DNA of 64,000 nucleotides, from NCBI GenBank assembly GCA_035482695.1, contig DATHQM010000054.1, forward strand, positions 460 to 64,459, read 5' to 3'. Of this stretch, positions 4,538 through 54,852 are shown in pieces (the stretch's first letter is position 1; the number at the start of each line of letters is the position of its first letter). Position numbers and translations under genes: made by a program. The notes below the pieces were generated by a model. It was not told the origin of the DNA. It saw only the letters and a program-made list of their open reading frames with translations, and ran no database searches. Source of the DNA: Steroidobacteraceae bacterium (GTDB taxonomy: Bacteria > Pseudomonadota > Gammaproteobacteria > Steroidobacterales > Steroidobacteraceae).

Positions 4538-5236
4538 ATGGCATACCGCAGCTTTTTCTGCCGGGTTGCCCGCCCGCCCGCGATCCCGGCCGTGGCGCTG
4601 GCCGTGGTGCTCGGCGCCGCGCCGCTGCATGCCGGCATCATGCGCGACGTGCTGGAGGACCTGCACATCGTCAAGCCGCCCCCGCCGGCCGCGCCCGCCG
4701 CGGGCGAGCAGATGCCGCCTTTTCAGGGATTCGCCTGCTGCAACCTGCACTACGACGGCCGCTCGATCAGCGACACGAACTACGCCTCGCTGCCGATGAT
4801 ACCGGCCGGTACGCCCATCGAAGTGGTCGCTTATGACAAGCACAAGGCCAGTATCAAGGTCGATGGCAAGCCGCTGCAGCTCAGCCAGGACAAGAGCAGC
4901 GACGTGGTGGCCCTCGGAACCTGGGTAAACCAGGTCGTGGTGAAGGACGATCCGCGCCCGCGCATCCGCAGCTATTCGCCGGCCGTGCAGGAGGCGATCC
5001 GCGAGGGCAAGGTGACGCTCGGCATGACGCGCGAGCAGGCCATCGTGGCCGTCGGCTACCCGCTGCCGAATGAGACCATCACGCTCGACGCGCCCGCATG
5101 GCGCATTTACCACGCGCGCCGCGAGCCGTTCGATCTCAATTTCCGGGCCGACGGGGGTCTGGGGTCAGTGACCGGCGACGACAGCGTCACGAGTGCCATG
5201 GTCTACCAGCCGCAGAAGAGCGCCTCGGGTCGCTAG
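4538..5236 (+). CDS. hypothetical exported protein with a BamE (SmpA/OmlA)-like C-terminal segment
   Basis: GGAGA RBS before ATG 4538. N-terminal hydrophobic signal (AIPAVALAVVLGAAPLHAG). GMTREQAIVAVGYP resembles the SmpA/OmlA motif. Divergent from the caspase-like gene. Confidence 0.6.
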   Translation: MAYRSFFCRVARPPAIPAVALAVVLGAAPLHAGIMRDVLEDLHIVKPPPPAAPAAGEQMPPFQGFACCNLHYDGRSISDTNYASLPMIPAGTPIEVVAYDKHKASIKVDGKPLQLSQDKSSDVVALGTWVNQVVVKDDPRPRIRSYSPAVQEAIREGKVTLGMTREQAIVAVGYPLPNETITLDAPAWRIYHARREPFDLNFRADGGLGSVTGDDSVTSAMVYQPQKSASGR

Positions 5237-5300
5237 GTTCGATCGAGCGGTCGGAACGCGGTGGGTCGCTACCGGCCCATGGCCGGACGCCCGCGTCGTC

Positions 5301-5513
5301 TCAGCGCCGTTGTCGGCTGACTCCCGCCGAATGATGCGTATGGTCGTAGCGCACGACGTGCACTGCGGGAGTGGAATGCAGCGCAGCGCGGCGCGCTGCG
5401 AGAATCTGTTGCGGAATGAGCAGAGCGGCGACCAGGGCTGCCGCGACGATGACGCCGAGCGTGGCGGCGCGCAGCGATAAGGCACGACGCGGTGCCGGGA
5501 ACGCGCGCCTCAT
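5301..5513 (-). CDS. small hypothetical single-pass membrane protein (70 aa)
   Basis: ATG overlaps the TGA of the upstream small ORF (ATGA coupling). TM helix LGVIVAAALVAALLI. The track ORF 5301..5846 shares only this 3' part. Confidence 0.4.
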   Translation of the reverse strand: MRRAFPAPRRALSLRAATLGVIVAAALVAALLIPQQILAARRAALHSTPAVHVVRYDHTHHSAGVSRQRR

Positions 5514-36039: not shown

Positions 36040-37149
36040 ATGAAACACGCGACCCGCAGCCTCTACTACAAGACCGTGGCCTGGTGCGCCGCGGCGCTGC
36101 CGATCGTCGCGCTGCTGCTCGCACTGCCGCTTGCGCGGGCGGCCGCGGCCGCTCCGCCCGCCGCCTCCCCGGCGCAGACGCCCGCGCCACAGTTCGGCGG
36201 CCAGTGCGCCGAGGCACTCGCGCAGGGCCAGCACGTCGCGACCAACTGCGCCATCACCTGGACCGACAAGGACGGCAAGCTCTACTGCTTCAGCAGTGCG
36301 GCGGCGAAGAAGTCCTTCCTCGAGGATGCGCAGACGAATCTGCAGAAGGCGCGCGACTTCAGCGCCGCGAGCAACGTCGAGTCGACCGAGCAGGCTATGC
36401 AGTCCTTCGACAGCAACGACGCCGAGGCACTCGTCAAGGGCCTCATCGAGGAGAAAACCAAGGCCAACGGTGGCGTCTTTCCGTACGAGGATCCGCTCAG
36501 CGGAGAGCAGCTGAAACTCAGCTTCGACGGCATCGATTTCACGCGCACCATCGACGGCTACGGGTTCTTCCCCGACGTGAAATTCCACGACGCCGCCGAT
36601 GCGCAGAAGCGCTACCTGATCGATTTCTGGGTGGCGCCCGGCGCCGACGCGAAGCTGAAGGTGCAGGAGATCCGCATCTACAAGGAGTCGGTGAAGAGCG
36701 AGGGCACCTGGGTGCTGACCGCGCGCTCGCCGATACCGTGGTGGTGGATCCCGGCTTCCGAGCATCCGGGCAAGATGGCGGCCAAACGCAGCTGGGAAGT
36801 GATGTCGGCGGTCGAAGGCGGAGCCCTGCGCGCCCAGGCAACGAACAACGGCGTGTTCGAGCTCAAGGACGACAAGACCGGCAAGGTGCTGAAGCTCGAG
36901 TTCGTCGACACGCATCAGCCCATCCGGCAACTCGACGAGAACGGGCACTACTTCGCCTGCACGGACTTTCGCGTCGTCGGCACCAAGGACCAGATCTACG
37001 ATATCGACTTCTGGGTCACCGACAAGGACGGCACCATGACGGTCGAGCAGACCAAAGTGCACAAGGTGCCCGAGCTCAAGGACGGCCAGTGGGTGCAGGT
37101 GCCGCGCTACGAGTGGAAGGACGTCGGCAGCTCGCACGTCGTGCCGTGA
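36040..37149 (+). CDS. exported hypothetical protein: N-terminal YHS-like segment plus an internally duplicated domain
   Basis: AAGGA RBS and a signal peptide. GGQCAEALAQGQHVATNCAITWTDKDGKLYCFSSAAAKKSF resembles secreted YHS-type domains. Two repeats share D..(S/T)G..LKL.F ... Y.IDFWV ... V.E....K. Confidence 0.75.
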   Translation: MKHATRSLYYKTVAWCAAALPIVALLLALPLARAAAAAPPAASPAQTPAPQFGGQCAEALAQGQHVATNCAITWTDKDGKLYCFSSAAAKKSFLEDAQTNLQKARDFSAASNVESTEQAMQSFDSNDAEALVKGLIEEKTKANGGVFPYEDPLSGEQLKLSFDGIDFTRTIDGYGFFPDVKFHDAADAQKRYLIDFWVAPGADAKLKVQEIRIYKESVKSEGTWVLTARSPIPWWWIPASEHPGKMAAKRSWEVMSAVEGGALRAQATNNGVFELKDDKTGKVLKLEFVDTHQPIRQLDENGHYFACTDFRVVGTKDQIYDIDFWVTDKDGTMTVEQTKVHKVPELKDGQWVQVPRYEWKDVGSSHVVP

Positions 37150-37198: not shown

Positions 37199-38308
37199 CT
37201 AGCCCGCCGGCACGGCGCGCACGACGCCCCAGGGACTGCCGCCGACCTTCACCCGGGCTTTCACCTCCCCGGTCTTGAGATCGATGATCGACACATCGCC
37301 CGAGGGCCCGTTGGCCGTGTAGGCCGTCTCGCCGTCGGAGCTCAGCGCCACGCCCCAGGGACGCACGCCGACATTGTCGATGGTGCGGACGATCCGGCCG
37401 GATTGCGTGTCGACCTCGAGGAGCTTGCCGAACCTGCCGGTCGTGACATAGAGGTGCCGGCCGCCGTCCGGCGAATCGAGGCCCATGGGGCGCACGACTT
37501 TCGGGTCCCCGAGATCGATGGTCTTCACGACCTTATAGTCGTCGCTGCTGAACTCCGTCAGCGCCGCGCCGAACTCATCGCTCACGTAGCCGCGATGCGT
37601 GTCGCGGGACAGGTAGATCGCGCGCGGGCGCTTCCCGGTAGGGATCTGCGCCAGCACCTTCATGGCGCCGGCCTCGACCACGTAAACCGCGTTGGAGGTC
37701 TCGCAGGCGACGTACACGATGCGGTCGTCCGCACTAATGGCAACGCCCTCCGGCTCGGTACCGACCGGCACAGTGACGCGCAGGCTCCCCTTGGCAAGGT
37801 CGATGGCCGAGAGCTGCCCGCTGTCCTCGTTGGAGACATACAGCACCTTGCCGTCGTGCGACAGCGCGAAGGTCTCCGGGTCGATGCCGCTCGGGTAGGT
37901 GCCGATGAGTCGCTGCGCGGCGAGGTCGATCACCCCGATGCCGTCGTAACGGTGATCGGGCGGCGGGAGCTTCGACTCGTCGACCCCCGGTCCCGCCGCC
38001 GGCGAGCCGGTCAGCGCCACATACAGCCGCTTGCGATCCGGGGAGATGACGATGCCGCGCGGCCGCTTGCCGACCGCGATGCGCGCCACCACCGCCGCCT
38101 GCTGCGGATCGACGATCACGACGTTGCCGCCGGTCTCGTCCGAGACGTACAGCCGCTCGCCGCCGCCCGCCGCGACGGCCGCGCTGAGCGGTGCGAGCAG
38201 CAGCAGCGCCAGCACCGCGGCCGCGGCACCGGAACGCCGGCGCGATGCGTGAGTCTTCAGTAGCGCACCATCAGTACAGCACCACGCTTCGGATCGAGGT
38301 GCCGGCAT
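37199..38308 (-). CDS. YVTN-repeat beta-propeller protein (PQQ-dehydrogenase-associated type)
   Basis: Repeated ..LYV(S/A)...G.V.VID.... units ([99 protein letters not shown]). Overlaps the flhA 3' end by 38 nt if ATG 38308 is used. Confidence 0.8.
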
Positions 38309-39380
38309 GCATCAGGTCGAACGCGTCGTTGATCTTATCCAGCGGCATGGTGTGCGTGATCAGCGGATCGATCGCGATCTTCTTGTCCATGTACCAGTCG
38401 ACGATCTTCGGTACGTCGGTGCGGCCACGCGCGCCGCCGAAAGCGGTGCCCTTCCATACCCTGCCCGTCACCAGCTGGAACGGCCGGGTCTTGATTTCCT
38501 GGCCCGCGCCGGCCACGCCGATGATCACCGATACGCCCCAGCCGCGATGGCAGCACTCGAGTGCCTGGCGCATGAGGTTGACGTTGCCCACACATTCGAA
38601 GCTGTAGTCGGCGCCGCCGTCGGTGACGGCGACGAGGTGCGCCACCAGGTCGCCCTCAACCTCCTTGGGGTTGACGAAGTGCGTCATGCCGAATTTCTCG
38701 GCGAGCGCCTTGCGATTCGGATTGAGATCGACGCCGACGATCTTGTAGGCGCCGGCCATGCGGGCGCCCTGGATCACGTTCAGCCCGATGCCGCCGAGAC
38801 CAAACACCACCACGTTGGCGCCCGGCTCGACCTTCGCGGTGTTGATCACCGCGCCGATCCCGGTGGTCACGCCGCAGCCGATGTAGCAGACCTTGTCGAA
38901 CGGCGCGTCCTCGCGGATCTTCGCCACCGCGATCTCCGGCAGCACCGTGAAGTTGGAGAAGGTCGAACAACCCATGTAGTGGTAGATCTTGTCCTTGCCG
39001 ATCGAGAAGCGGCTGGTGCCATCGGGCATCACGCCTTTGCCCTGGGTGGCGCGGATCGCGGTGCACAGGTTGGTCTTGCGCGACAGGCAGCTCTTGCACT
39101 GCCGGCACTCCGGCGTGTAGAGCGGGATCACGTGGTCGCCCTTCTTCACGGAAGTGACGCCAGGTCCTACGTCGACGACGATGCCCGCCCCCTCGTGTCC
39201 GAGAATCGACGGGAACAGGCCTTCCGGGTCACCGCCCGAACGGGTGAACTCGTCCGTGTGGCAGACGCCGGTGGCCTTGAGCTCCACCAGCACCTCGCCG
39301 GCCTTGGGGCCTTCCAGATCGACCGTCGCGATCTCGAGGGGCTTGCCGGCGGCATAGGCAATCGCAGCGCGTGTTTTCAT
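38271..39380 (-). CDS. flhA: S-(hydroxymethyl)glutathione dehydrogenase / class III alcohol dehydrogenase
   Basis: [49 protein letters not shown]...[10 protein letters not shown] and the rest are near-canonical class III ADH sequence. AGGAAC RBS. Confidence 0.93.
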
Positions 39381-39427
39381 GGCTGACAGGTTCCTGATTC
39401 GGAAGCGGTTACGAGTCCGAAGCTGAG

Positions 39428-39455
39428 GGCCCCGCGCGAGCGGGCGCGCGGGGCC
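39428..39455 (-). other. strong intercistronic stem-loop between gfa and flhA
   Basis: GGCCCCGCGCG-(6 nt)-CGCGCGGGGCC, a perfect 11-bp GC stem in the 92-nt gfa-flhA spacer. No U tract follows. Confidence 0.5.
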
Positions 39456-39472
39456 TTCAATGCACGCTGAAC

Positions 39473-40045
39473 TTACGCGGCCAGCACGCCCTTGGCTTTC
39501 GCCGTGTGCGTGGCGATCAGATCCATCAGCGCCGGCGACAGGCAGTCATAGGGCTCGAGGCCGAGCTCTTTCAACCTGGCGCGCACCGCGCCCATCTGGT
39601 CGGGCTTGGTGCCCGACTCGATGATCGAGGATACGAACGCCGCGAAGCGCGGCTCCTCCCAACCCTGCTCCTTCGACAGCTCGGTATGGAAGAAGTCGAA
39701 GCCGTAGAACGGGTGCTGCTTGTTCTCGATGCGCCCGTACATGTGCACGCCGCAGCCGGTGCAGGCATGGCGCTGGATCGCCGCCTTCTCATCGACGATC
39801 TTCAGCTTGTTGCCGTTCGCGGTCACGGACAGCTTGTCGCGCCCGCCCACGCCGACGATGGAGAACACCGCTCCCTCCGGCTTCCAGCACTTGGTGCAGC
39901 CGCAGGCGTGATTGAAGGCGACGTTCGTGCCGATGCGCACGGTCACCGGGTTGCTGGTGCACTTGCAGGTGAGCGTGCCGCCGGCGAACCCCGGCGTGCC
40001 CTTCTTGACTCCGTTGTCGACCATCGGGTGAATCTTGATTGCCAT
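39473..40045 (-). CDS. gfa: S-(hydroxymethyl)glutathione synthase (glutathione-dependent formaldehyde-activating enzyme)
   Basis: [26 protein letters not shown]...[15 protein letters not shown]...[17 protein letters not shown]...FVSSIIESG matches Paracoccus Gfa, as I recall it, almost residue for residue. Confidence 0.93.
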
Positions 40046-40082: not shown

Positions 40083-42071
40083 TCATTCGGGCGACTGCGG
40101 ACTCACCCCGAGGTGCTGGGTGTGTCGCAGAAGTCCGTGTCGGTGAATCTTGCGGTAAATGGTGCGGCGGCTGATGTGCAGCCGCGCGGCGGCAGCGCTG
40201 ACGTTCCACTGACAGGTCTCGAGCGTGCGCCTGAGCGCATCGCGCTCGGCGCCGCTGAGCGCGCTCTCGCCGTCGGCGGCCGCGTCCACCGCCGCGCCGT
40301 CGCCGTGCGCTGCGTCCTCGACGCCGCCCGCCAGCCACTGCTCCCTGAAGTCCGCGAGCGTCAGCCGCTCGCCGCTGCGCAGCGCCAGCATGGTGCGCAG
40401 CACGTTGCGCAGCTGGCGCACGTTGCCCGGCCAGGAGTGGCGCACCAGCCGCTCGAGCAGCTGGGGCTCGATCTCGATCGTGGCAACGCACTCGCTCGCG
40501 AGCAGCTTGCGGATCAGGCCGGCCTTGTCGGTGCGCTGGCGCAGCGGCGGCAGCCGCACGGTGATGCCGTTCAGCCGGTAATACAGGTCTTCGCGGAACT
40601 GCCCCTTGGCGATCATGTCGAGCGGATCGTGTTGCGTGGCGCTGACGATGCGCACGTCGACGTTGACCACCTTGTTGCCGCCCAGCGGCGTCACTTCGCG
40701 GTCCTCGATCACGTTCAGCAACCGCGCCTGCAGGGCCACCGGCATGTCGCCGATCTCGTCGAGAAACAGCGTGCCGCCGTTGGCCTGCAGGATGCGGCCC
40801 ATACCGCCTTCGCGCGCCGCGCCGGTGAAGGCGCCCGGCTTGTGGCCGAACAGCTCGCTCTCGATGAGCGTTTCGGGGATCGCCGCGCAGTTGACCGTGA
40901 CGAAGGGCTTGTCGGCGCGGTTGCTCGCGTAATGGATGGCGCGCGCGCAGTAACCCTTGCCGGTGCCGGTCTCCCCGAGCAGCAGCACCGAGATATCCCG
41001 ATCGATCACGCGCCGCAGCGTCTCGACGTTCTGCGTCATGACTGGATCGGCCGAGTGCAGGCAGTCGAGCGACCCGCGCGCGCCCGCCGCGTTGGCCATG
41101 CGCACCTCGGCGTCGACCGCCACCTGGGTGCGTGGCGGGGCTTCCAGCGGCGCCTGCACGGTCGCGAACCAGCGCCGTGCCGCGGGCCGGGAGTTGAGCG
41201 GCTCGGCGCGGAAGCCGCGCTGCGCGGCGAGCTGCATGAGCGTGGCGAGGCTGGTATCGAGGATACGGTCGGCGCGCTGGCCGCACACCGCATCATGGTC
41301 GCGCTGCCCGAGGAGCTTGAGCGCCGCACGGTTGACGCCGCGCACCACGCCCTCGTCGTCGAACGCCAGCAGGCCTTCGCCGGGCGTGCTGACGAACTCC
41401 GCGCAGCGGTGAAAGCGCGCCAGGTGCAGGTCCTTGCAGCCACTGAGCAGCGTGCGGTTCTCGACGTTCTGCGCCGCCATGTCGACCAGCGCCAGCGTGT
41501 GACTCTGCGGATTCGAGGAGGCCCCGGAGATATCGAGCGCCGCGAGCAGCTCGCCGCGCATGTCGAAGATGGGCGCTGCCGAACAGGTGAGCGCGGTGTT
41601 CTGCGCCAGGAAGTGGTCGGTACGGTGGATCACCACCGGGCGGCGCGCCGTGAGGCAGGTGCCCATGCCATTGGTGCCCATCTCGCGCTCGCTCCACATC
41701 ACCCCTTCGCGAAAGCCGCAGCGCCTGGCGGTGGCGGAGAAGCCGGTGTCGCCGAGATAGCTGAGGATGACCCCGTCGCGGTCGGTCAGCATGATGCTGT
41801 ATTCGGAGTGCTTGATGAGCTTGCCGAGCTGCTCCATCTCGATGCGCGCGACGGCCAGCAGCACCCGCAGCCGTTCGCGCCGCTCCTGCAGGTCCGCGCG
41901 CTCGACGCTGTTCGGACGGCGCGTCTCCTGCGGATCGAGCGCAAAGTTGTTGAGGCAGCGGCTCCAGGATGTACGGACGACCTCGGGGATGGGCTGCTCG
42001 GCACCGTGTCGGCGTACCAGACTGCCGATGAGGTCCTGGTGAGTATGAGCAGCGGGTCGCGCACGCATCAT
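40083..42071 (-). CDS. sigma54-dependent transcriptional activator (AcoR-like: N-terminal GAF-type sensor, AAA+ domain, Fis-type HTH)
   Basis: Walker A GETGTGKG, the sigma54-contact motif GAFTGA ([10 protein letters not shown]), ESELFGH, and C-terminal [21 protein letters not shown] 42071 has a GGAGGGGGAG RBS. Confidence 0.9.
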
Positions 42072-42107
42072 AAATAGCTCCCCCTCCACACCCGTCAGGC
42101 GGACGGA

Positions 42108-42656
42108 CTAACCCTCAGGCTTACAGCCGAATTTACAGTCGGGCGAGCCATGGTAGTTCGACCGTACCCAGGCAAGGATGCGCCACAAATCGTCGGCCGT
42201 CTGCACCACCTGCCCCATCTGCGGCATCGGTCCGACGACGTTCTCCTGGGCAATGCGGCTGTAGCCCTTGCTCTGCAGAGTCTGGCTCCCGTAGGTCACC
42301 AGCCGGAACAGCGTGTCGTCATCGCCGCCGTAGACCCAGACGTCGTTAGTGAGCGGCGGGCACATCCCGCCGCCGCCGGTGCCGCCGTGGCAACCGTTGC
42401 AGCCGTAGCTGAAGTACAGCTTGCCGCCGGCCGTCACGACCGCCTGGTCAGTGTCCGCGTACGGGTTCTTGAGCGTGCCCTTGGGCGCGGCATCAGCCAC
42501 CTGGATGGGAGTCTGGCTGGCGGCCTTGGCGGGCGCCGCTGCGGGCGCTGCAGCCGGCGCTGCAGCCTGTGCGGCAGCGGCCGGCGGCTGGCGGGCGTAG
42601 ATCAGCAACGCCGCCAGCGCCAATGTAACCAACACCGTGACTGCACTCTTCCGCAC
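42108..42656 (-). CDS. periplasmic c-type cytochrome of the methanol/ethanol-dehydrogenase-associated type (XoxG/c550-like)
   Basis: Single haem site within FSYGCNGCHGGTGGGGMCPPL plus a distal GPMPQM. Signal peptide follows GTG 42656 (GAAAGG RBS). The track's ATG 42725 would overlap the upstream gene by 29 nt. Confidence 0.8.
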   Translation of the reverse strand: MRKSAVTVLVTLALAALLIYARQPPAAAAQAAAPAAAPAAAPAKAASQTPIQVADAAPKGTLKNPYADTDQAVVTAGGKLYFSYGCNGCHGGTGGGGMCPPLTNDVWVYGGDDDTLFRLVTYGSQTLQSKGYSRIAQENVVGPMPQMGQVVQTADDLWRILAWVRSNYHGSPDCKFGCKPEG

Positions 42657-42696
42657 TTGCGCGCCTTTCGTTGCCTCGAGGAACGGGACTGGCGTT

Positions 42697-44316
42697 CTAC
42701 GCTCCGGGATGTGCGCCAGATTCATCCAGCAGCTTGATCACCTTCTGATCGCCCTTGGCGCGCGCGATGGACAGCGCGGTGTCGCCGCGCTCGGTCTGCG
42801 CGTTGACGTTGGCGCCGGCATGCATCAGCAGCTCCACCATCTCCGCGCGGCCGTTGGCGGCGGCGATCATCAGCGCGGTGACTCCGCCGCTGTTGTGCGC
42901 GTTGACGTCCGCGCCCTTGCCCAGCAGCGCCCGGGCGAGGCCCTGCGCGTCGTTGGCGCTCGCCAGCATCAGCGGGGTGTAGCCCGCCTCACCGATCGCA
43001 CGGTTGGGATCAGCCCCGACCGCGACCAGCGCCAGCGCTGCCTCGTCCTTGCCGTACTGCGTGGCGATGCCGAGGGGCGTGAAATTCTGCCGGCTCACTG
43101 CATTCGGGTCCCCGCCCTTCGCCGCGAGCGTCTTGATGTCCGGCGCATCATTGCAATAGGCCGCGGTCATGAGCGGCGTCCAGCCGTCGCTGTCGCGCTG
43201 ATTGACGTCGGCGCCGTGCGCCAGCAGGAACGCGACCATCTCGGGTGAGCGCTGAATGAGCGCGTGATGCAGCGGCGTCTCGCCCTGCAGGTCCTGTGCC
43301 GTCACCGGCACGTGCACCTTGTCGAGCAGGTACGCGACGCGCACCTGGTCGTCGGCCACCACCGCATTGTTGAGCTCAATCTTCGGGTCCGCGCCGTGCT
43401 TCAGCCAGCCCTGCAGTTGCGCGATGCTCACCGGCGCGGCGCGCGCCTTCACCGGCGCCTGCGGCGCTCGCTCAACGTACGCTGCGTGCGCGGGCAGCTC
43501 GCCGCTGATCAGGCAGGTGTCGCACTGCACGAGCGGCACGCCGTAGTCGTTCAGGATCGCGTGCAGCGCGTCGCGCGACTGCTGCATCGCCTGCTCGAGG
43601 CGCTGCCGCAGCTCGTGATCGCTGCGCCGCACGGCGATCGCCATGTCGTACTGCAGCGGCACGGTATCGTCCATGAGGTTGGCCGCCTGCAGGTTGAGCG
43701 GCTCGCGCTTCATCGTTTTGTAGTAGCCGGCGAGCGGTCCCCACACGGCGGCGACGTCCAGATTGCCGTCGGCCACCTGCTGCACCTGGTAGCTCGGCTG
43801 GTCCGCCGGCACCAGGTCGGCGTCGTGACTCAGATAATGAATCTCCACCTTGCCGATACCGTGCTCGACGAGCGCCTCACGGATCGCGGAAGTCTCGTAG
43901 ACGCCGACCTTGAGCGTGCGCAGGCGCGGATCGTCCAGGGTCCTGATGTTCAGGTTGCGATCGCTGCGCGTTACCAGCACGTAGGTCGTGCGGTACAGCG
44001 CGCTGGTCGTGAGCACGTCCTCGGCGCCCAGCGGCATGTCGAGCATCACGTCGCACTGCTCGGCATCGAGCGTATTGCGTATCAGTCCGCGCTCAACCCC
44101 GGGCCGGTAGTAATACTCGACGGTGGTGTTGAGCGCGCGCGCCAGCACCTCCGCCATCTTGTTCTCGATGCCTTCGCCCTTGTTGTTGGACAGCGGCATG
44201 TTGCCCGGATCCGCGCATACGCGCAGCGCCGCCTCGGCCGGTGCGGCCAGCAGCGTGACCAATCCTGTGGCCAGCAACACGTTCAGTGCCGGCCGGGCTC
44301 GCATCCACCTCGTCAT
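42697..44316 (-). CDS. MoxJ/XoxJ-like periplasmic binding protein fused to C-terminal ankyrin repeats
   Basis: Signal peptide. LRVCADPGNMPLSNNKGEGIENKMAEVLA...CDVMLDMP matches the quinoprotein-dehydrogenase-associated SBP family. The C-terminal ~240 aa hold 6-7 ankyrin repeats (GETPLHHAL, DGWTPLMTAA, GYTPLMLAS, GVTALMIAAANGRAEMVELLMHAGANVNA, GDTALSIARAKG). Confidence 0.85.
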   Translation of the reverse strand: MTRWMRARPALNVLLATGLVTLLAAPAEAALRVCADPGNMPLSNNKGEGIENKMAEVLARALNTTVEYYYRPGVERGLIRNTLDAEQCDVMLDMPLGAEDVLTTSALYRTTYVLVTRSDRNLNIRTLDDPRLRTLKVGVYETSAIREALVEHGIGKVEIHYLSHDADLVPADQPSYQVQQVADGNLDVAAVWGPLAGYYKTMKREPLNLQAANLMDDTVPLQYDMAIAVRRSDHELRQRLEQAMQQSRDALHAILNDYGVPLVQCDTCLISGELPAHAAYVERAPQAPVKARAAPVSIAQLQGWLKHGADPKIELNNAVVADDQVRVAYLLDKVHVPVTAQDLQGETPLHHALIQRSPEMVAFLLAHGADVNQRDSDGWTPLMTAAYCNDAPDIKTLAAKGGDPNAVSRQNFTPLGIATQYGKDEAALALVAVGADPNRAIGEAGYTPLMLASANDAQGLARALLGKGADVNAHNSGGVTALMIAAANGRAEMVELLMHAGANVNAQTERGDTALSIARAKGDQKVIKLLDESGAHPGA

Positions 44317-44458
44317 TTTCTGCCTGCAGCTCCTCGCTCCATGCGGTGCCTTAGCTCCTTGCGGTGCTCTTCCCCTGAAGAAGAGGACGCGCCCGGCACG
44401 GTGCCGGGCGCGTCCAGCTGGCGACTATCTCACCAGGTCCTTGCTGAGGAGCATCCTC

Positions 44459-46657: not shown

Positions 46658-47956
46658 CTAAAAGCCGAGAAACGCCCCGATGTTGATCGTCGTCGCATCG
46701 TTGCTCCCGGCGCTGCTCTCGCTCTTCGTGCGGCTGCCTTCCGCCAGCAGCATGAGATTCTTGGTGAGCGAGTAATACACCCCGATCGTGCCCTTGCGGT
46801 TGCTGCGCACCATATCGGGATTCGCCGCCTGGTCGAGCGAATTGGCGTAGTCGAGATTGCTCGCGCCGTAGTTCGCACCCAGTTTCACCGCGCCGAACTT
46901 GTACGTGACCTGTGCCAGGTAACCGTTCGAGGTTCGCGTTGAGTTGTCGAAGTCACCGAGGTTGAACAGTGCCGTCGTGCCCAGCCCGGTGGCATGGTAG
47001 TAGTAGCCGATGACTTCCAGGTCCTGCATGTCGAACTTGGCGAAGATGTCCTCGCCGGTGCCGGTGTACTGGTTGGTGGTCGTGGCGGGCGGGGGCGTCA
47101 GGTTCGGCACCTCGTAGTCCTGTTGCTGCGTGATGGCCGCCACGGAGAGGTAGAACTTCGTGCCCTCGGCGATCGGCAGCGTGTAGGCGAGCTTGGCGTG
47201 AAAGCCGGGGGCCTTCTTCGGCTCCACGGCACCAGCGTCGCTGAGCGAATTGAGCGGGTCGAAGATACCCACGGTCAGCGCGAAGCCCGAAAGGTCAGGC
47301 GTCGTGTAGTCGATCTGCGCCAGCCAGTCGGTGTAGATGTAGCCGAAGCCGATGCCACCAAGGGTGGTGTTGGCAGGCGCCGCCGAGGCGGCCGAGCCGG
47401 GTGCGCCCACACCCACCAGCGTCATGTCATTGAGAATGACGTCCGCACCGAACAGCCCGATCTGGCGGCCGAGGGTGAAGGTGCCCATGTCCTTGTTGCC
47501 GAAGGTCATGTAGACCTGGCGGATATCGAGGCCGGTGGAACCGAGCGCCGTGTTCGACGAGCCGTTGGTAGTGCCGGCCTGCAGATTAGGGCTGCCGCCG
47601 TCGTTGGTGGCGATGCCCGGGTAGAGGCCAAGGTGTGCCGCCAGGTCGATGCCGTCCTGCGTCGTGGAAACACCGAACGTGAAGGCCGCGGGCAACAGGC
47701 CGTTGCCGACGTTCGAAACGTTGCTGCTCGAGGCAGAGCCCACGCACGTCAGGCCGCCGGCGACCGCGACCGCGCTCGTCGCGCTCTGGCAGCTCGACCA
47801 GATGTAATCGACGTTCACTTCGCCGTCGACGGAAAAAGTCCACGATCCGTCTGCGGTCTTCAGGTCCACCGCTCCGGCCGGGAGCGCCAGGGCCGCAAGA
47901 CATGCCCCGGCCACCGTGGTGCGCAGGATCCGTCGAGTCAAGAAAGTGCTCTTCAT
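46658..47956 (-). CDS. outer-membrane porin (general Gram-negative porin type)
   Basis: GGGGAG RBS then ATG 47956. Signal peptide ends PAGA-VD. Alternating beta-strand pattern and a C-terminal ...INIGAFLGF. Confidence 0.85.
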   Translation of the reverse strand: MKSTFLTRRILRTTVAGACLAALALPAGAVDLKTADGSWTFSVDGEVNVDYIWSSCQSATSAVAVAGGLTCVGSASSSNVSNVGNGLLPAAFTFGVSTTQDGIDLAAHLGLYPGIATNDGGSPNLQAGTTNGSSNTALGSTGLDIRQVYMTFGNKDMGTFTLGRQIGLFGADVILNDMTLVGVGAPGSAASAAPANTTLGGIGFGYIYTDWLAQIDYTTPDLSGFALTVGIFDPLNSLSDAGAVEPKKAPGFHAKLAYTLPIAEGTKFYLSVAAITQQQDYEVPNLTPPPATTTNQYTGTGEDIFAKFDMQDLEVIGYYYHATGLGTTALFNLGDFDNSTRTSNGYLAQVTYKFGAVKLGANYGASNLDYANSLDQAANPDMVRSNRKGTIGVYYSLTKNLMLLAEGSRTKSESSAGSNDATTINIGAFLGF

Positions 47957-48027
47957 TGCATTACTCCCCACAGGTTGTCCCTCGTGATACGGCAGTGCGC
48001 GGCAGCGCAGCCACTGAAGACTGCGGT

Positions 48028-48043
48028 AGCAAGGCACATGCCA
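48028..48043 (-). promoter_or_regulatory. sigma54 (-24/-12) promoter upstream of the porin gene
   Basis: Minus strand reads TGGCATGTGCCTTGCT. GG and GC are separated by exactly 10 nt, and 13 of the 14 specified positions match the consensus TGGCAC-N5-TTGCW. The predicted transcription start is about 60 nt upstream of ATG 47956. Confidence 0.65.
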
Positions 48044-48241
48044 CCGTACGTTGTAATAGCGCAACATCTAGTGTACATGAGGAACAACGACTTATGCCCA
48101 GACTTCTGCGGGCGAAAGGCTGCAATTGTCAGAAAGGCTACAGTGTGACGCGCTTAGTGTTGCGAAAATGTCCCACTGTGCGTGGCCACGGCTACGCTCG
48201 CGCGCCACGGCGATGCCTCGAGGCGGCGCACGCCGTGCGAG

Positions 48242-51200
48242 CTAGCGTCGCAGCCATCGCGCCGCGAGCGGCGGCACCAGCACCAGGCTCACGAAGGTCG
48301 AGGAGACCAGGCCGCCGAGGATCACGACCGCCATCGGGCCTTCGATCTCGTGGCCGGGCGCGCGGCTTTGCAGCGCCACCGGCAACAGCGCGAACGCGGT
48401 GAGCAAAGCGGTGAGCAGCACGGGGGTGAGCCGCTCTTCTGCGCCGCGCAGCGCCGTCGCCACTCCCCAGGGCGCGCCCTCGACGCTCACCAGGTGCTCG
48501 TAGTGCGAGATCAAAAGGATCGTGTTGCGCGCGGCCATGCCGAACAGCGCCACGAAGCCGACCATCGCCCCGAGCGAGAGCGTGCCTCCCGCGAGCGCCA
48601 CGGCGGCGACACCGCCGATCAGCGTGCTCGGCAGCGCCGCGAGCACCAGCAGCACGTGGCGGCTGTGACCGAAGGCGAGCGCGAGCAGCAGCACGATCAG
48701 CACGAGCGCGGCGGCTGAATGCCACAACAGCTCGCGTGCCGCCGCCGCCTGCGCCGGTGCGGTGCCGCCGTAACGCAGGTACACGTTCGGCGGGAGCTTC
48801 ACGCGCGCGGCGATGGCCTGGTGCGCGGCACGGGCAAAGCCGGCCTGGTCGGAAGTTGTGGGACTGGCGATCACCACCTGGCGGCGCAGCCCGTCCTGGT
48901 GCTCGATGAGACTGCGTGCCGACACCATGGTGAGCGTCGCCACGTCTGCGAGCGGCACCATGACGCCGTCGCGGCCGCGCACGCGCAGCTCGCGCACATC
49001 CTCCGGGCTCGCACCGGCAGCGGCGATGCGCACCACGACCGGCACGCTGCGGTCGGACTCATTGAGCTGCGCCACCTCGGTGCCGTGATAGGCGGCGTTC
49101 AGCACGCCGAGCACGTCGGCAGCCTGCAGTCCGTAGAGGCTGAGCTGCCCGGGCCGCAACTGCACCTGCAGCTCGGGCTGGCGCGGCGGCACCTCGAGGC
49201 GCACGGTGCCGCTCTCTCGCCACTGGCGCAGCAGCGTCGCGATCTCGCCCGCCACCTCATCGTCGCGGTCCAGGTCCGGGCCGAAGACGCTGACGAAGAA
49301 CGGCGCCACTTCGCCCGAGAGGGTTTCGCCGATTCGCTCGGCGAGCACCGAGTAGATCTCGACCAGCTGGTTCGGGAACTGATCAAACACCGCGCGCACC
49401 CGTGATTCGAGCTGCTCGATCGTGACGCCGCGTGCAGGATCCAGCTGGATCTCGAACTCGCTCTTGTTCGGCGCATCCGGATCCTGGCCGTTTTCCGCGC
49501 GGCCGATCTGCTCGGCGACACTCTTCACCCCGGGAATCGCCACCAGCCGCGCGGCGATGCGCTCCCCGACGCGCGAGGTCTCGGTGAGCGAGATGCCGGG
49601 GCGCAACGCGGCGTGCGCGATCAGGTAATTCTCGCGGAAATCCGGCAGCAGCCGTGCCCCGAGCAGCGGCAGCAGCGCGAGCCCGGCCGCACCGCTCAGC
49701 AGGATCGCGCCGAGCACCAGCGGGGCGCGCGGTGCCAGACGCGCGATGGCCCGCTGCTGCCAGCGCTTCGCCTGCCGCAGCCACGCCGGCTCCTCCCGCG
49801 GCACGTAGCCGTGCATGAGCAGCGCGCACAGCGCCGGGGTGGCACTCATCGCCACCAGCAGCGACAGGCCGACCGCCAGCAGGAAGGCGGTCGCCAGCGG
49901 CCGGAAGAAGGCCCCCTGCAGCCCCGACAGCATGAGGATCGGCAGGAACGCGACCGCCACCGCCGCGGTGGCGAAGAACACCGGGCGGCGCACCTCGAGC
50001 GAGGCATCCAGGAGCAGCGCTCCCAGCGGCACCCCGGCGCCGGCCGCGCGCCGCCGCCGGGTGATGTTCTCGACGTCGATGACCGCATCGTCGACCACCA
50101 CCCCGAGCGCCACCACCAGGCCGCCGAGGCTCATGGTGTTCAGCGACCACCCGCCGAGGCTCAGGATCCACACCGTGGCGAGCAGCGACACCGGGATGGC
50201 GCCGAAGGAGATGAGCGCGCCGCGCCAGTCGCGCAGCGTGAGCAGCAGCAGCACCACCACCAGCAACGCGCCGACGGCCAGGGAGTTGCGCAGCTTGCCG
50301 ATCGCGCTCTCGATGAAGCTCGCCGGGCGCAGCAGCGCCGGATGGTACTGCACGCCGCGCTGCGCCAGCGCCGGCACCAGCGCCTGCAGCCGCTGCTCCA
50401 GCTCACGCGTGACGTCGAGCGTGTTGGCGCCGTACTGCGTGGATGTCTCCACCAGGATGCCGGGGTGTGCGCCGATGATCGCGTCGCCGAAGCGAGGTGC
50501 GGCGCCGTCGCGCACCTGCGCCACGTCGGCGAGGCGGATGGGCACGCCGCCACGGCTCGCGATCACCGTCTGCCCGAGCTCGTCCGGCGAGGTACCCGGC
50601 GGCTGCGCCTGCACGACGATGCGCTGCGTGGCGGACTCGAGGTAGCCGCCGCCGGTCATCTGTGTGCCGCGGCGCGCCGCCTCGAACACATCCTCGAGGC
50701 CGACACCGAGCGCGGCGAGCTTCACCGGGTCCACCAGCAGCTGCCGCTCGCGCGAGTCGCCGCCGAAGATCTGCACCTGCGCGACCCCGGGCACGCCGAG
50801 AATCTGCGGCTTCAGGGTCCAGCGGACCAGGTCGCGCAGCTCGAGCGGCGAGAGCCGCTCGCTGGTGAAACCGAAATGCAGCAGATACTCCATCGAGGAG
50901 CTCAGCGGCGAGAGCAGTGGCGCACCGACGCCGGCGGGCAGCAGTGCGGCCGCACCGGCGAGGCGCTCGGTGATCACCTGGCGCTGCAGGTAAGGGTCGC
51001 TGTCGCGGCCGAACACCACCTGGATGGCCGCCAGGCCCTGGCTCGACGTCGAGCGCACCGCCTCGACGTTCTCCGCGCCGGAGAGCAGGTCCTCGAGCGG
51101 CCGCGTCACCAGCGACTCGACCTGGGTCGCATCCAGTCCCGGCGCCTCGGCCTGCACCAGCACGTGCGGCGGGGCGAAATCGGGAAACACGTCGAGCCGC

Positions 51201-51301
51201 GCGGTGAGCAGTGCGCCGACGCCGAGCAGCGCGATGAGCAGCGAGAGTGCGGTCACGATGCGAGGATTGGCGAGCGAGCCGCGAACGATGGTGGCGAGCA
51301 T
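48242..51301 (-). CDS. CzcA/CusA family heavy-metal efflux RND transporter
   Basis: 1019-aa, 12-TM RND architecture with two large periplasmic loops. N-terminus MLATIVRGSLANPRIVTALSLLIALLG...FPDFAPP is typical of the HME-RND family. ATG 51301. Confidence 0.9.
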   Translation of the reverse strand: MLATIVRGSLANPRIVTALSLLIALLGVGALLTARLDVFPDFAPPHVLVQAEAPGLDATQVESLVTRPLEDLLSGAENVEAVRSTSSQGLAAIQVVFGRDSDPYLQRQVITERLAGAAALLPAGVGAPLLSPLSSSMEYLLHFGFTSERLSPLELRDLVRWTLKPQILGVPGVAQVQIFGGDSRERQLLVDPVKLAALGVGLEDVFEAARRGTQMTGGGYLESATQRIVVQAQPPGTSPDELGQTVIASRGGVPIRLADVAQVRDGAAPRFGDAIIGAHPGILVETSTQYGANTLDVTRELEQRLQALVPALAQRGVQYHPALLRPASFIESAIGKLRNSLAVGALLVVVLLLLTLRDWRGALISFGAIPVSLLATVWILSLGGWSLNTMSLGGLVVALGVVVDDAVIDVENITRRRRAAGAGVPLGALLLDASLEVRRPVFFATAAVAVAFLPILMLSGLQGAFFRPLATAFLLAVGLSLLVAMSATPALCALLMHGYVPREEPAWLRQAKRWQQRAIARLAPRAPLVLGAILLSGAAGLALLPLLGARLLPDFRENYLIAHAALRPGISLTETSRVGERIAARLVAIPGVKSVAEQIGRAENGQDPDAPNKSEFEIQLDPARGVTIEQLESRVRAVFDQFPNQLVEIYSVLAERIGETLSGEVAPFFVSVFGPDLDRDDEVAGEIATLLRQWRESGTVRLEVPPRQPELQVQLRPGQLSLYGLQAADVLGVLNAAYHGTEVAQLNESDRSVPVVVRIAAAGASPEDVRELRVRGRDGVMVPLADVATLTMVSARSLIEHQDGLRRQVVIASPTTSDQAGFARAAHQAIAARVKLPPNVYLRYGGTAPAQAAAARELLWHSAAALVLIVLLLALAFGHSRHVLLVLAALPSTLIGGVAAVALAGGTLSLGAMVGFVALFGMAARNTILLISHYEHLVSVEGAPWGVATALRGAEERLTPVLLTALLTAFALLPVALQSRAPGHEIEGPMAVVILGGLVSSTFVSLVLVPPLAARWLRR

Positions 51302-51306
51302 GGGCG

Positions 51307-52299
51307 CTAGTCGTGTTCCTCTTCGGCGGCCGAGAAGCTGTTGATCCCCTGCAGCGACCACAACACGCCCGCGCCCTGAACGACGACCTGGTCATCGCCC
51401 GCCAGGCCCTCGACCAGCCACGCGCCGCCCACGCGCGCGACCGGTCGCACCGCCGCCGCGGCGTAACTGAAGCTGCCCGCCGCGGCCGCGTTCACCCGCC
51501 GATAGACGTAGGCGCCCTCGGCGGCGTAGAGCAGCGACGCGGCCGGCACCAGCAGCCCGGTGGCGGCGGCGCCCTGCAGCCGCACGCGCACGCGCGCGCC
51601 GGGACCTAAGCCCGGCGGCGCACGCTCGAGCTGCAGCAGCCAGCCGGCGCTCTGCGTCTGCGCGTCGATGCGCGGCAGTGCGCCGAGCACGCGCGCGGCG
51701 AGCTGCGTGCCGTCGACCTCCAGCAGCGCGCGCTGACCGATCGCACTGCCGAACGCATGCCCGGGCGCGTCGGCACGCAGCAGGAGCTGCCGGGCGTCGG
51801 TCAGGGCGCTGAGCAGCGTGGCGCGCGCCGCGGGGCTCCAGGCGGCGAGCGGGCCCCACTGCAGCCGGAATGTGAGCTCCGCGGCCCGCGCCTGCGCGCC
51901 GCTCTCGGCGGACTGGGCCTGCGCCGCCTGCCACGTCTTGAGCGATGCCTGCTGATCCTCGCGGTATAGATGCTCGAGGCGCGCCGCGTCGGCGCCCGCG
52001 GCCGCGGCGGCCGCGCGGGTACTCTCCATGCGGCCGAGGTCACTCACCAGTGTCACCGGATCGAGGACCGTGCCGAACGCCTCGATCTCAACCGGCGCGC
52101 GCAGCGGCAGCGGACGCTCGATGCGAATGCCGACGGCGTCCTGCTGCGCGAGCGTCAGTGACAGCGGCCCCGCCGGTGTGGCGGCCGGCGGCGGCGCGTC
52201 GTCGGTGTCGGCGAACGCCGCTGCGGCTGCCAGCGCGAGCACTACGCACAGCGACCGGCTGAGAACGATCACGATGACGGCGCGGATGGCGTCGGCCAT
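51307..52299 (-). CDS. efflux RND periplasmic adaptor (membrane fusion protein)
   Basis: ATG 52299 (MADAIRAVIVIVLSRSLCVVLALAAAA...), an Ala-rich coiled-coil segment, and a beta-barrel-like C-terminus. Ends 5 nt before the RND pump start. The rest of track ORF 51307..53622 is shadow. Confidence 0.75.
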   Translation of the reverse strand: MADAIRAVIVIVLSRSLCVVLALAAAAAFADTDDAPPPAATPAGPLSLTLAQQDAVGIRIERPLPLRAPVEIEAFGTVLDPVTLVSDLGRMESTRAAAAAAGADAARLEHLYREDQQASLKTWQAAQAQSAESGAQARAAELTFRLQWGPLAAWSPAARATLLSALTDARQLLLRADAPGHAFGSAIGQRALLEVDGTQLAARVLGALPRIDAQTQSAGWLLQLERAPPGLGPGARVRVRLQGAAATGLLVPAASLLYAAEGAYVYRRVNAAAAGSFSYAAAAVRPVARVGGAWLVEGLAGDDQVVVQGAGVLWSLQGINSFSAAEEEHD

Positions 52300-53691: not shown

Positions 53692-54555
53692 CTAGCTGCG
53701 CGGCGCGGCTGTGAGCGCGTCGGCATGGAAGCGCAGGTGATCCTCGACGAAGCTGGCGATGAAGTAATAGTCGTGACCGTAGCCCTCGTGGCGGCGCAAT
53801 AGCAGCGGTTGGGCGGCGCTGGCGCAGGCCTGCTCCAGCAGCTCCGGCAACAGCTGACCCTGTGGCAGGAACTTGTCGGCCAGCCCCTGGTCGACCAGCA
53901 GCCGCGGAAACAGCGGCGCGCGGCGCGCGCTGATCAGCTCCACCGCGTCGTAGCTCGCCCAGGCGGCCGTGTCCTCGCCGAGATAGCGCGGCAGCGCCTT
54001 GCGGCCCCACGGGCAGCGGGTCGGCGAGCAGATCGGCGCGAAGGCGGAGACCGAGCGGTAGACATCCGGGTTTCTGAACGCCAGCACCAGCGCGCCGTGC
54101 CCGCCCATCGAGTGGCCGAAGATTCCCAGCTGGCGGGGATTGCCCGGGAAGCGGCCGAGCACCGTCTCGCGCAGCTCCTTGAGCACGTAGTCGTACATGC
54201 GGAAGTTGCGCGACCAGGGCGGCTGGGTCGCATTCAGGTAGAAGCCCGCGCCGGCGCCGAACTCCCAGTCATCCGCCTCGCCGGGAATGCCGGTGTTGCG
54301 CGGGCTGGTGTCGCAGGTGACCAGCATCAGGCCGAGCTGCGCAGCGACGCGCTGCGCGCCCGCCTTGATGGCGAAGGTCTCCTCGGTACAGGTCAGCCCG
54401 GCGAGGTAGAACAGCACCGGCACCGCGCGCTGCTGCGCCTGCGGCGGCTGGTAGACGGCAAAGCGCATCGGCGTACCCGTCACCTGCGAGTCGTGGCGGT
54501 AGAAGCCCTGCAGGCCGTCGAAGCTCTTATGCTCGCTGATCGTTTCGAGTGTCAT
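53692..54555 (-). CDS. fghA: S-formylglutathione hydrolase (esterase D)
   Basis: MTLETISEHKSFDGLQGFYRHDS...VLFYLAGLTCTEETF...GIFGHSMGGHGAL...GYGHDYYFI is canonical FghA/FrmB sequence. ATG 54555. Confidence 0.92.
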   Translation of the reverse strand: MTLETISEHKSFDGLQGFYRHDSQVTGTPMRFAVYQPPQAQQRAVPVLFYLAGLTCTEETFAIKAGAQRVAAQLGLMLVTCDTSPRNTGIPGEADDWEFGAGAGFYLNATQPPWSRNFRMYDYVLKELRETVLGRFPGNPRQLGIFGHSMGGHGALVLAFRNPDVYRSVSAFAPICSPTRCPWGRKALPRYLGEDTAAWASYDAVELISARRAPLFPRLLVDQGLADKFLPQGQLLPELLEQACASAAQPLLLRRHEGYGHDYYFIASFVEDHLRFHADALTAAPRS

Positions 54556-54852
54556 CTCAATCCCCGTCGGCTCCCTCGCACCTGCGGCACGCATTATGAA
54601 TCTGAACGGGCGCCGCGGTCTTGCGCTCGCTTGCGCCGCGCACGCCGCAGGTCATGTCACGGCTGGCTCAGGCGTGCCACATTGGACACACCGCGCTGCG
54701 CGCCTGTGACAGCGTGCCGGTCCGCGGGGTATATTTTTTGCGCACCGACTGCGGCGCACCGCTGTCGCGCATGGCGGCACGCCGTTAGTCGGTGCGTGCG
54801 ACGACGATGGCCGGGCACGGCCGCCATCCCCCTGGCGGCCGTGCCCCGGCAA

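Follow-up and report, generated by a model that had tools for sequence, protein, structure and literature searches.

What does a row of ankyrin repeats do on the accessory protein of a methanol dehydrogenase? The question is raised by one gene in a 64,000-nucleotide (nt) stretch of a Steroidobacteraceae genome (the window; assembly GCA_035482695.1, contig DATHQM010000054.1, positions 460 to 64,459). In this gene, a single open reading frame (ORF) encodes a periplasmic binding protein of the XoxJ/MxaJ type followed by ankyrin repeats, and its neighbour is a xoxF gene. No methanol dehydrogenases are more widespread than those of the XoxF type, which are also the best-known lanthanide enzymes. 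The route by which pyrroloquinoline quinone (PQQ) and metal get into XoxF is still open, and recent papers call the function of XoxJ unknown. We found that the fusion is no oddity of a single genome, but a widespread trait of the XoxF1 clade of these enzymes. Based on its family, its anatomy and its genomic company, we consider it probable that the protein is a XoxJ-type periplasmic accessory protein of XoxF1, that is, a cofactor-loading chaperone with a tethered protein-binding arm.

The fusion gene is the sole ORF at its position with a coding-like composition (GC content of 0.89 at third codon positions, uniform along the gene, and 0.43 at second positions). Its first 29 residues read as a Sec-type signal peptide with a basic n-region, a hydrophobic core and a cleavage site after AEA, and a comparable hydrophobic N-terminus is present in all homologues. 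The domain that follows passes the family model TIGR03871 (quinoprotein dehydrogenase-associated substrate-binding protein (SBP), 'MoxJ_2') with 253.9 bits against a cut-off of 212.15, and residues 30-263 cover positions 1-232 of the 232 in the profile. Among solved structures, residues 28-264 align with XoxJ (6ONP; E 3.5e-34), and the binding-protein half also matches MxaJ (9ISM_B and 5SV6) at E 2e-26; Pfam SBP_bac_3 matches this half weakly.

Structure prediction agrees with the profiles. With 35 close homologues as input, AlphaFold2 gave a mediocre model of the first half; with 93 sequences, the most distant at 41% identity, the model has a mean predicted local distance difference test score (pLDDT) of 87.9 and a predicted template modelling score (pTM) of 0.65. 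Searched with Foldseek, this model resembles XoxJ 6ONP with a template modelling (TM) score of 0.87 and MxaJ 5SV6 and 9ISM_B with 0.76-0.78. The Cys34/Cys88 pair of the binding-protein half is conserved, as is the loop 160-181, in which the conserved residues D165, D167, Q173, P174, Q177, V178, Q179 and V181 sit at the place of the L8 loop of MxaJ. The other cysteines of the protein are 265, 268 and 388; it has no CxxCH and no cytochrome match in Pfam. The signal peptide, periplasmic location and binding-protein-plus-ankyrin architecture proposed in the initial annotation hold up. Its label 'XoxJ/MoxJ-like' holds for the wider family TIGR03871 and for the fold, but not for the narrower MoxJ equivalog family TIGR03870.

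The C-terminal half is a genuine ankyrin domain. It passes the profiles Ank_2 (PF12796; E 9.6e-37, 125.9 bits against a cut-off of 27.3) and Ank (PF00023; E 4.1e-36, 121.4 bits against 21.1). In the AlphaFold2 model, a capping helix (298-306) and seven helix-pair repeats (311-535) are predicted with pLDDT of 90-98, and Foldseek aligns this half with designed ankyrin repeat proteins (DARPins) at TM 0.93-0.94 and a root-mean-square deviation of 1.6-1.7. The earlier estimate of six to seven repeats in about 42697-43420 therefore resolves to seven in 42700-43431. The count of seven is constant in all 268 aligned family members. Throughout the family TPLM replaces TPLH in repeats 5 and 6 (M450 94%, M483 96%), and among close relatives (at least 68% identity) the surface residues at the target-contact positions of designed ankyrins are invariant, for example E346, W379, Y446 and V479. 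Ankyrin effectors of the Legionella Dot/Icm system (AnkH, AnkY, AnkG and others in NCBIfam) were rejected as relatives, the best score being 83.8 bits against a cut-off of 600 (cut-offs 450-1400), as for a generic repeat match. Sub-threshold matches to HEM4, the LRRK2 ankyrin domain, TRP channels and MzaA likewise reflect generic repeat similarity.

Between the two domains lies an element that the initial annotation did not describe: an invariant PLVxCxxC...G.LP.HG.Y segment. The PLVxCxxC motif is present in 270 of 270 long family members with the N-terminal motif, and G272 (100%), G278 (96%), H277 (93%) and Y280 (90%) are conserved too, none of these four having been used for selection. The segment keeps a length of 17 residues in nearly all of the 268 aligned members. 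Its mean column entropy is the lowest in the protein, at 1.09 bits compared to 1.31 for the binding-protein domain, 1.69 for the ankyrin domain and 2.43, the highest value, for the linker. A pLDDT of 94-97 suggests that the segment is ordered and packed on the binding-protein domain. The linker that follows is A/P-rich and 13-35 residues long across the family, and residues 281-295 are the only part of the model with low confidence (pLDDT falling to 62 over residues 281-290).

The segment is absent from unfused XoxJ and MxaJ, and unfused homologues stop at ...GVPL(V/L). Its cysteines may form a structural disulfide or a redox-active pair, or the segment may bind a metal, and this segment may be a weightier novelty than the ankyrin tail. 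Haem binding by this CxxC was rejected because the second cysteine has no histidine after it. In the dehydrogenase served by MxaJ, binding of PQQ leads to the formation of an unusual vicinal disulfide (PMC12276312).

The partner enzyme of the fusion can be named with some care. Its best match among solved enzymes is by a wide margin 7O6Z with 880 bits, followed by 4MAE (XoxF2) with 580 and 6DAM/6OC5 (XoxF5) with 490-500. It carries the DYD lanthanide motif at residues 347-349 and a vicinal Cys-Cys at 137-138. 7O6Z is XoxF1 from Methylacidimicrobium thermophilum AP8, an enzyme that contains neodymium (PMC8546591). The window enzyme is accordingly assigned to the XoxF1 clade, an assignment that goes by the closest solved relative and motifs rather than by a phylogenetic tree. 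The order reported in the initial annotation, with the fusion gene between xoxF and the cytochrome gene, was reproduced, and the interval from xoxF to the cytochrome gene is free of a small-subunit (MxaI) gene.

How far does the fusion extend beyond this genome? A word-indexed search returned more than 120 protein clusters of 520-567 amino acids (aa), with 68-95% identity and 93-100% query coverage, many of them machine-named 'quinoprotein dehydrogenase-associated probable ABC transporter substrate-binding protein'. The exhaustive search of representatives was swamped by giant eukaryote-like ankyrin proteins and gives a lower bound rather than a census: at least about a dozen full-length fusions at 39-49% identity were found among the best 150 representative matches. 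With a profile from divergent fusions, a second large subfamily of about 606 aa was found. Both halves share a single ORF in more than 230 distinct clusters (90% identity, 520-650 aa). Public databases already list fusion proteins under a generic name, and cultured strains contribute RefSeq entries among them.

The second subfamily (P0271-P0387) has two peculiarities of its own. Its members carry an insertion of 14-22 residues in ankyrin repeat 5, and an extension of 25-50 residues (…FxDLTxxE…) between the signal peptide and the binding-protein domain. It includes Hyphomicrobium and Methyloceanibacter-like proteins (L006 7001-8821 and L009 7001-8818).

Gene neighbourhoods tell how strict the pairing with XoxF1 is. 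A scan of genome contigs with the single protein yielded five loci, its patterns being too specific. An alignment of four XoxF1-type enzymes, used to scan metagenome contigs of the Joint Genome Institute (JGI), yielded 80 loci, with dehydrogenases 75-100% identical to that of the window. Five of the 80 have at most 235 nt beyond the dehydrogenase gene and were left out, and the judged set therefore comprises 75 loci with at least about 450 nt downstream. In 74 of these 75, the binding-protein domain begins within about 350 nt downstream of xoxF1. The ankyrin and binding-protein halves share one ORF in all 71 loci that reach the ankyrin region (69 complete, 2 cut by the contig end); the other 3 of the 74 end earlier.

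The same holds in more distant organisms. Both halves stand in one ORF in eight genomes or metagenome-assembled genomes (MAGs), including isolates of Hyphomicrobium and Methylacidimicrobium. The fusion gene follows xoxF1 in AP8, Xanthomonas sp., Coralloluteibacterium stylophorae, a Bradyrhizobium-like contig, one locus assigned by the names of its neighbouring genes to Hyphomicrobium zavarzinii / Hyphomicrobium sp. DMF-1, a Methyloceanibacter-like contig and locus L008. Hyphomicrobium zavarzinii and Hyphomicrobium sp. DMF-1 are cultured methylotrophs. In the AP8 genome, which was reached with the 7O6Z sequence rebuilt from an alignment as query, xoxF1 is followed after a 21-nt gap by a 538-aa gene with ankyrin Pfam matches and then by a 158-aa cytochrome c, with a beta-propeller gene nearby. 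The order is the same in the Xanthomonas sp., C. stylophorae and Bradyrhizobium-like sequences. The divergent fusions each directly follow a 625-629-aa PQQ dehydrogenase. Two motifs recur in the fusions of all these organisms, LRVC.DPGN.P close to the N-terminus and PLVxCxxC..G.LP.H where the domains meet. Identity of these fusions to the window protein is 42-46% across almost the full length, and the dehydrogenases beside them are 57-74% identical to the window enzyme. All three orthologues that were scored (AP8, Hyphomicrobium, Xanthomonas) pass TIGR03871.

Beside other dehydrogenases the family looks different. In a Rubrivivax sp. MAG (L003), an XoxF5-type dehydrogenase (6DAM, 931 bits) is directly followed by an unfused 292-aa protein of the same family, TIGR03871 (277.7 bits). 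Such unfused proteins are 290-292 aa long, end in ...GVPLVDESFELRRN, are 35% identical to the binding-protein half of the window protein and have neither the CxxC segment nor ankyrin repeats. The binding protein is therefore plain beside XoxF5 (one XoxF5-type locus examined) and MxaF, and tailed beside XoxF1. In all lineages examined, namely Verrucomicrobiota, Alphaproteobacteria and Gammaproteobacteria, the tailed XoxJ is the standard partner of the XoxF1 clade, and the ankyrin tail is a real, selected addition.

Known systems suggest what the untailed half does. XoxJ of Methylorubrum extorquens AM1 (6ONP) shares with the window protein the fold, the LRVC.DPGNMP motif, the N-terminal cysteine pair and a place in a xoxF/cytochrome cluster. 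It differs in being a single domain (284 residues in the deposited chain) that ends in ...VPLL, with no CxxC-H-Y segment, linker or ankyrin repeats, and its partner is of the XoxF5 clade. In M. extorquens, xoxJ is needed for XoxF-dependent growth (PMC7391723, PMC6850437). The only family member with a demonstrated mechanism is MxaJ, which has the same fold as the binding-protein half, but lacks a C-terminal extension and serves the Ca-dependent MxaF together with MxaI. MxaJ binds folded apo-MxaF and opens a 'roof sheet' over the active site, through which PQQ enters; it was caught on MxaF by cryo-electron microscopy (9ISM, 9ISO), and the small subunit MxaI displaces it once PQQ is bound (PMC12276312). 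XoxF, a homodimer, has no such small subunit (PMC6850437, PMC8546591), so the displacement described for MxaJ in 2025 (PMC12276312) calls on a subunit that XoxF lacks. Seen against this work, MxaJ as a PQQ-insertion chaperone offers a more specific frame than the 'activation or assembly' of the initial annotation.

Two further systems bear on the tail. Cytochrome cGJ of Methylacidiphilum fumariolicum SolV is a XoxG-XoxJ fusion (PMC8498564; Versantvoort et al. 2019, cited in PMC8546591), and so a precedent for a XoxJ joined to a module of the same operon in a lanthanide methanol dehydrogenase system. Its fused partner is a haem c cytochrome and its enzyme belongs to the XoxF2 clade, whereas the cytochrome of the window is a separate gene. 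The second system concerns ankyrin repeats themselves. AnkB of Pseudomonas aeruginosa is reportedly an exported ankyrin protein, co-transcribed with the katB catalase gene and needed for full catalase activity. This example indicates that ankyrin repeats can help enzymes outside the cytoplasm. The title of Howell et al. 2000 (ref. 56 in PMC12754779) terms AnkB periplasmic. Unlike the fusion, AnkB is a small stand-alone ankyrin protein with a catalase partner and no binding-protein domain, and the likeness is functional, by description.

Fold, family and the strict pairing of the genes all point the same way, and they make a role of the fusion protein as a XoxJ-type loading chaperone or activator the probable one. 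By homology with MxaJ, the N-terminal domain would dock on freshly folded apo-XoxF1 and hold the active-site lid open while PQQ, and then the metal, is inserted. The anatomy of the rest suggests that the ankyrin solenoid would serve as a second protein-binding arm on a leash, holding a protein of the same module while cofactors are loaded or directly afterwards. Among candidates for this partner we favour XoxF1 itself, clamped at two points as a homodimer, although this falls short of an even chance. A hand-off to the membrane-tethered cytochrome comes next, on a par with the possibility that the arm has no specific partner and acts through its bulk or by lending stability. The beta-propeller protein or another protein is the least likely partner.

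Several results weigh against this interpretation. Chaperone function has been demonstrated within the family for MxaJ only. The XoxF5 systems work untailed, so the tail is dispensable for basic XoxJ function. The fusion protein misses the cut-off of the MoxJ equivalog model TIGR03870 by a wide margin (136.9 bits compared to 258.1). The L8 residues R161, N162 and Y164, with which MxaJ contacts MxaF, are not kept, although this negative carries little weight: when the protein is aligned to 9ISM_B with phmmer, its loop is shorter by 5 residues, with A and D aligned to the first two and Y deleted, and the alignment is uncertain at 26% identity. One of the 75 loci, L065 (Ga0105237_10031420, 4721-5385), has a cytochrome gene directly after xoxF1. 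Only 664 nt are left there after the dehydrogenase gene and the contig ends 25 nt past the cytochrome match, and the fusion gene may lie beyond or be absent.

The ankyrin surface adds the most specific difficulty. At the positions with which designed ankyrins contact their targets (2, 3, 5, 13, 14 and 33), repeats 2-6 have a mean entropy of 2.29 bits, compared to 1.50 at their other positions. Distant members are 37-41% identical to the window protein in this domain, no higher than consensus DARPins (40%). A conserved binding groove was sought at superfamily level in the family alignment and none was found. A variable, lineage-specific surface is hard to square with a fixed groove for the highly conserved XoxF1; a partner that evolves faster, or a function resting on shape instead of specific contacts, would suit it somewhat better.

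In the first alternative, which takes up the tether suggested in the initial annotation, the fusion would be a permanent third subunit, a stable scaffold whose ankyrin arm docks the cytochrome or a lanthanide-delivery protein onto XoxF1. The cytochrome gene is indeed next to the fusion gene in 65 of the 69 complete loci (the remaining 4 contigs are too short to tell) and in four of seven other genomes. The cytochromes of several lineages are tethered to the membrane through a lipobox, or through an anchor with an Ala/Pro linker, which makes a docking aid plausible, and both the cytochrome and the ankyrin domain diverge faster than XoxF1, as co-evolving partners would. The XoxJ-XoxG fusion of Methylacidiphilum (PMC8498564) is again a precedent. 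Against such a scaffold, the next gene is a propeller gene in Hyphomicrobium, where no cytochrome was seen in the locus, and in L008 and L009 a single unnamed gene that separates the fusion gene from the cytochrome gene. The cytochromes have a conserved core, CxxCHGGxGGGGMCPP, but no matching conserved groove is found on the ankyrin side, and the conserved unit contains no lanmodulin-like or lut-type gene. On balance, a permanent scaffold is unlikely, but it is the best placed of the alternatives.

Somewhat less likely still is that the tail needs no separate partner, and that the CxxC segment and the ankyrin solenoid form a built-in steric module that times the release of the binding-protein domain from XoxF1. 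Competition within the molecule might achieve this, or the module might detect that the cofactor has been loaded. The idea draws on the displacement of MxaJ by MxaI, which occurs only after PQQ is bound (PMC12276312), and on the lack of a small subunit in XoxF (PMC6850437). It is also in line with the CxxC segment being the most conserved part of the protein and its predicted packing on the binding-protein domain, and with an ankyrin surface that varies on a strictly kept framework and repeat number. The rise of pTM to 0.65 with the deeper alignment hints at a preferred arrangement of the two domains. Nonetheless, XoxF5-type systems release an unfused XoxJ with no such module, and the proposal is pure inference.

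A bolder variant, to which we give a little less weight again, would make the CxxC-H-Y segment and the ankyrin arm the XoxF1 stand-in for the small subunit or release factor: they would sense when loading is complete, perhaps by way of the CxxC and the vicinal-disulfide region of XoxF1, and hand the mature enzyme to the tethered cytochrome. If true, enzyme maturation would be coupled to the assembly of the electron-transfer chain.

The database name suggests a third alternative, namely the solute-binding protein of an ATP-binding cassette (ABC) importer for PQQ, a lanthanide chelate or an alcohol. The type-II periplasmic binding-protein fold, the weak SBP_bac_3 match and membership in TIGR03871, whose name hints at transport, are compatible with it. 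However, neither permease nor ATPase genes were found among the 28 window ORFs that were scanned (24-61 kb) or within the conserved section of related loci. The relatives of known structure work directly on the dehydrogenase (MxaF/MxaJ 9ISM, PMC12276312), and an ankyrin tail of 245 residues has no place in the docking of a binding protein on its permease. We regard an importer as very improbable. Finally, the joining of a xoxJ gene and an ankyrin gene by a sequencing or assembly error, for which a missed stop codon or frameshift had been considered in the initial annotation, is refuted almost beyond doubt by the single ORF in 71 of 71 independent contigs, the eight genomes or MAGs (isolates included) and more than 230 clusters, and by the uniform GC content at third codon positions.

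The interpretation as a loading chaperone with an arm thus builds on a known type of protein: what is new is a clade-specific CxxC and ankyrin extension on a chaperone type of the XoxJ/MxaJ family. The statement of the initial annotation that no XoxJ-ankyrin fusion has been characterised agrees with our full-text literature search. No description of the architecture was found in the literature searched, which misses most subscription papers, and an earlier mention is possible. At present, the name 'putative ABC transporter substrate-binding protein' masks a distinct architecture in at least several hundred sequence clusters. The fusion also adds a well-populated example of ankyrin repeats in the bacterial periplasm. 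With the tailed clade including the crystallised Methylacidimicrobium enzyme and cultured Hyphomicrobium strains, the tailed XoxJ offers a tractable handle on how XoxJ engages and releases its enzyme.

The features of the fusion gene and its surroundings are collected in Table 1.

Table 1. Positions, in the window, of the fusion gene, its parts and the surrounding features
Feature	Position	Strand	Basis or remark
SBP-ankyrin fusion gene	42697-44316	minus	ATG start, 539 aa
Signal peptide, residues 1-29 (MTRWMRARPALNVLLATGLVTLLAAPAEA)	44230-44316	minus	read from sequence; predicted cleavage between AEA and A
MxaJ/XoxJ-fold periplasmic binding-protein domain, residues 30-263	43528-44229	minus	TIGR03871, 6ONP, Foldseek
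CxxC-x8-H-x2-Y segment, residues 264-280 (QCDTCLISGELPAHAAY)	43477-43527	minus	family-wide conservation
Ala/Pro-rich flexible linker, residues 281-295, 15 residues (VERAPQAPVKARAAP)	43432-43476	minus	low pLDDT
Ankyrin domain, residues 296-539, capping helix and seven repeats	42700-43431	minus	stop codon 42697-42699
xoxF, XoxF1-clade lanthanide/PQQ methanol dehydrogenase, 622 aa	44459-46327	minus	TIGR03075 (methanol/ethanol family of PQQ dehydrogenases), 565.8 bits
Monohaem c-type cytochrome, presumed XoxG equivalent	42108-42725	minus	Pfam Cytochrome_CBB3, Cytochrom_C
GC-rich hairpin, 14 base pairs, with T-rich tail	44385-44415	minus	terminator-like; within the 142 nt that separate xoxF from the fusion gene
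Putative sigma-54-type -24/-12 element, TGGCAT-N5-TTGC (TGGCATGTGCCTTGC)	48029-48043	minus	73 nt upstream of the likely porin start
Porin-like outer-membrane protein gene	46658-48067, likely start 47956	minus	signal peptide, C-terminal ...GAFLGF
CusA/CzcA-type pump gene and porin-like gene	46658-51361	minus	upstream of xoxF
Sigma-54 enhancer-binding protein with GAF sensor	40083-42089	minus	Sigma54_activat (E 1e-66), GAF, HTH_8
gfa and S-(hydroxymethyl)glutathione dehydrogenase (glutathione-dependent formaldehyde dehydrogenase)	38271-40045	minus	
YncE/YVTN-type beta-propeller	37199-38308	minus	TIGR03866, 216 bits, below the cut-off of 287
Secreted 369-aa protein	36040-37149	plus	weak YHS-like N-terminal region
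S-formylglutathione hydrolase	53692-54594	minus	
TonB-dependent receptor gene	54893-57385	minus	

The longest ORF of the cytochrome gene overlaps the stop codon of the fusion gene, and its likely start is a GTG at 42656. The protein reaches 44 bits against the MoxG model, whose cut-off is 147.8. Its CxxCH lies at residue 109, in a core (CNGCHGGTGGGGMCPP) that is common to the cytochromes of other XoxF1 clusters. In these cytochromes (window, L008, L009 and L090-L093) the core is unusual, CxxCHGGxGGGGMCPP, with an extra cysteine after the glycine run, and the scores fall far short of the MoxG/cytochrome cL cut-off. Their N-termini differ, with a lipobox in Xanthomonas and L008 and a hydrophobic anchor with an Ala/Pro linker in the window. 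Going by these motifs, the cytochromes of XoxF1 clusters look like a distinct membrane-tethered type of XoxG.

The beta-propeller is the fourth recurring member of the module, and TIGR03866, the family it approaches, is described as 'PQQ-dependent catabolism-associated'. A homologue is found in or near the XoxF1 cluster in six of eight genomes examined, including Hyphomicrobium (428 bits), AP8, Xanthomonas, Coralloluteibacterium and the Bradyrhizobium-like contig (for example L006 8851-9831 and L090 11045-12142). It often stands directly 3′ of the fusion or cytochrome gene. The unnamed genes of the same size in L008 and L009 show no match to the propeller.

Two elements may bear on the expression of the cluster. 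The hairpin between xoxF and the fusion gene may, judging from its form and position, be an attenuator or a stabiliser of the mRNA that gives more dehydrogenase than accessory proteins. The putative sigma-54-type element has counterparts elsewhere: 41 of 64 related loci (L001, L002, L010-L089) have an exact TGGCA[CT]N5TTGC at the corresponding place, before the porin gene in the group that resembles the window and 112-299 nt before xoxF in the group at 75-79% identity. The consensus is not enriched over the window, with 77 matches compared to 82 expected, and the site is credible only because of this position-specific conservation. The element suggests that the GAF-domain activator may place the cluster under sigma-54 control, and the sigma-54 transcription unit apparently begins with the porin-like gene. 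In AP8, a response-regulator-type sigma-54 activator gene lies directly upstream of xoxF1. The porin-like protein itself has no match in Pfam or NCBIfam.

The xox genes are flanked by a complete set for glutathione-linked formaldehyde oxidation, and gfa and the dehydrogenase gene also adjoin xoxF1 in Coralloluteibacterium (L092). Upstream of xoxF, the CusA/CzcA-type resistance-nodulation-division (RND) pump and porin-like genes are syntenic in L001, L002 and L005. At the other end of the cluster, the secreted 369-aa protein has no family match beyond its weak YHS-like region, and it closes the syntenic cluster in the same three contigs. The order RND pump, porin, xoxF, fusion, cytochrome, sigma-54 activator, gfa, dehydrogenase, propeller and YHS-like gene is largely common to these three MAG contigs, one of which is named Steroidobacteraceae and two 'uncultured Gammaproteobacteria'; one contig is without the formaldehyde dehydrogenase gene and one without a propeller match.

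TonB-dependent receptor genes like that of the window lie within a few kb of XoxF1 clusters in five other genomes (L008 and L090-L093), and these receptors are candidates for the uptake of lanthanides or lanthanide chelates. Finally, a 103-kb JGI soil metagenome contig, L010 (Ga0210394_10000355), carries a dehydrogenase 99.7% and a fusion protein 95-98% identical to those of the window. By this level of identity it is a close strain of the window organism, whose nearest named relatives are Steroidobacteraceae MAGs.

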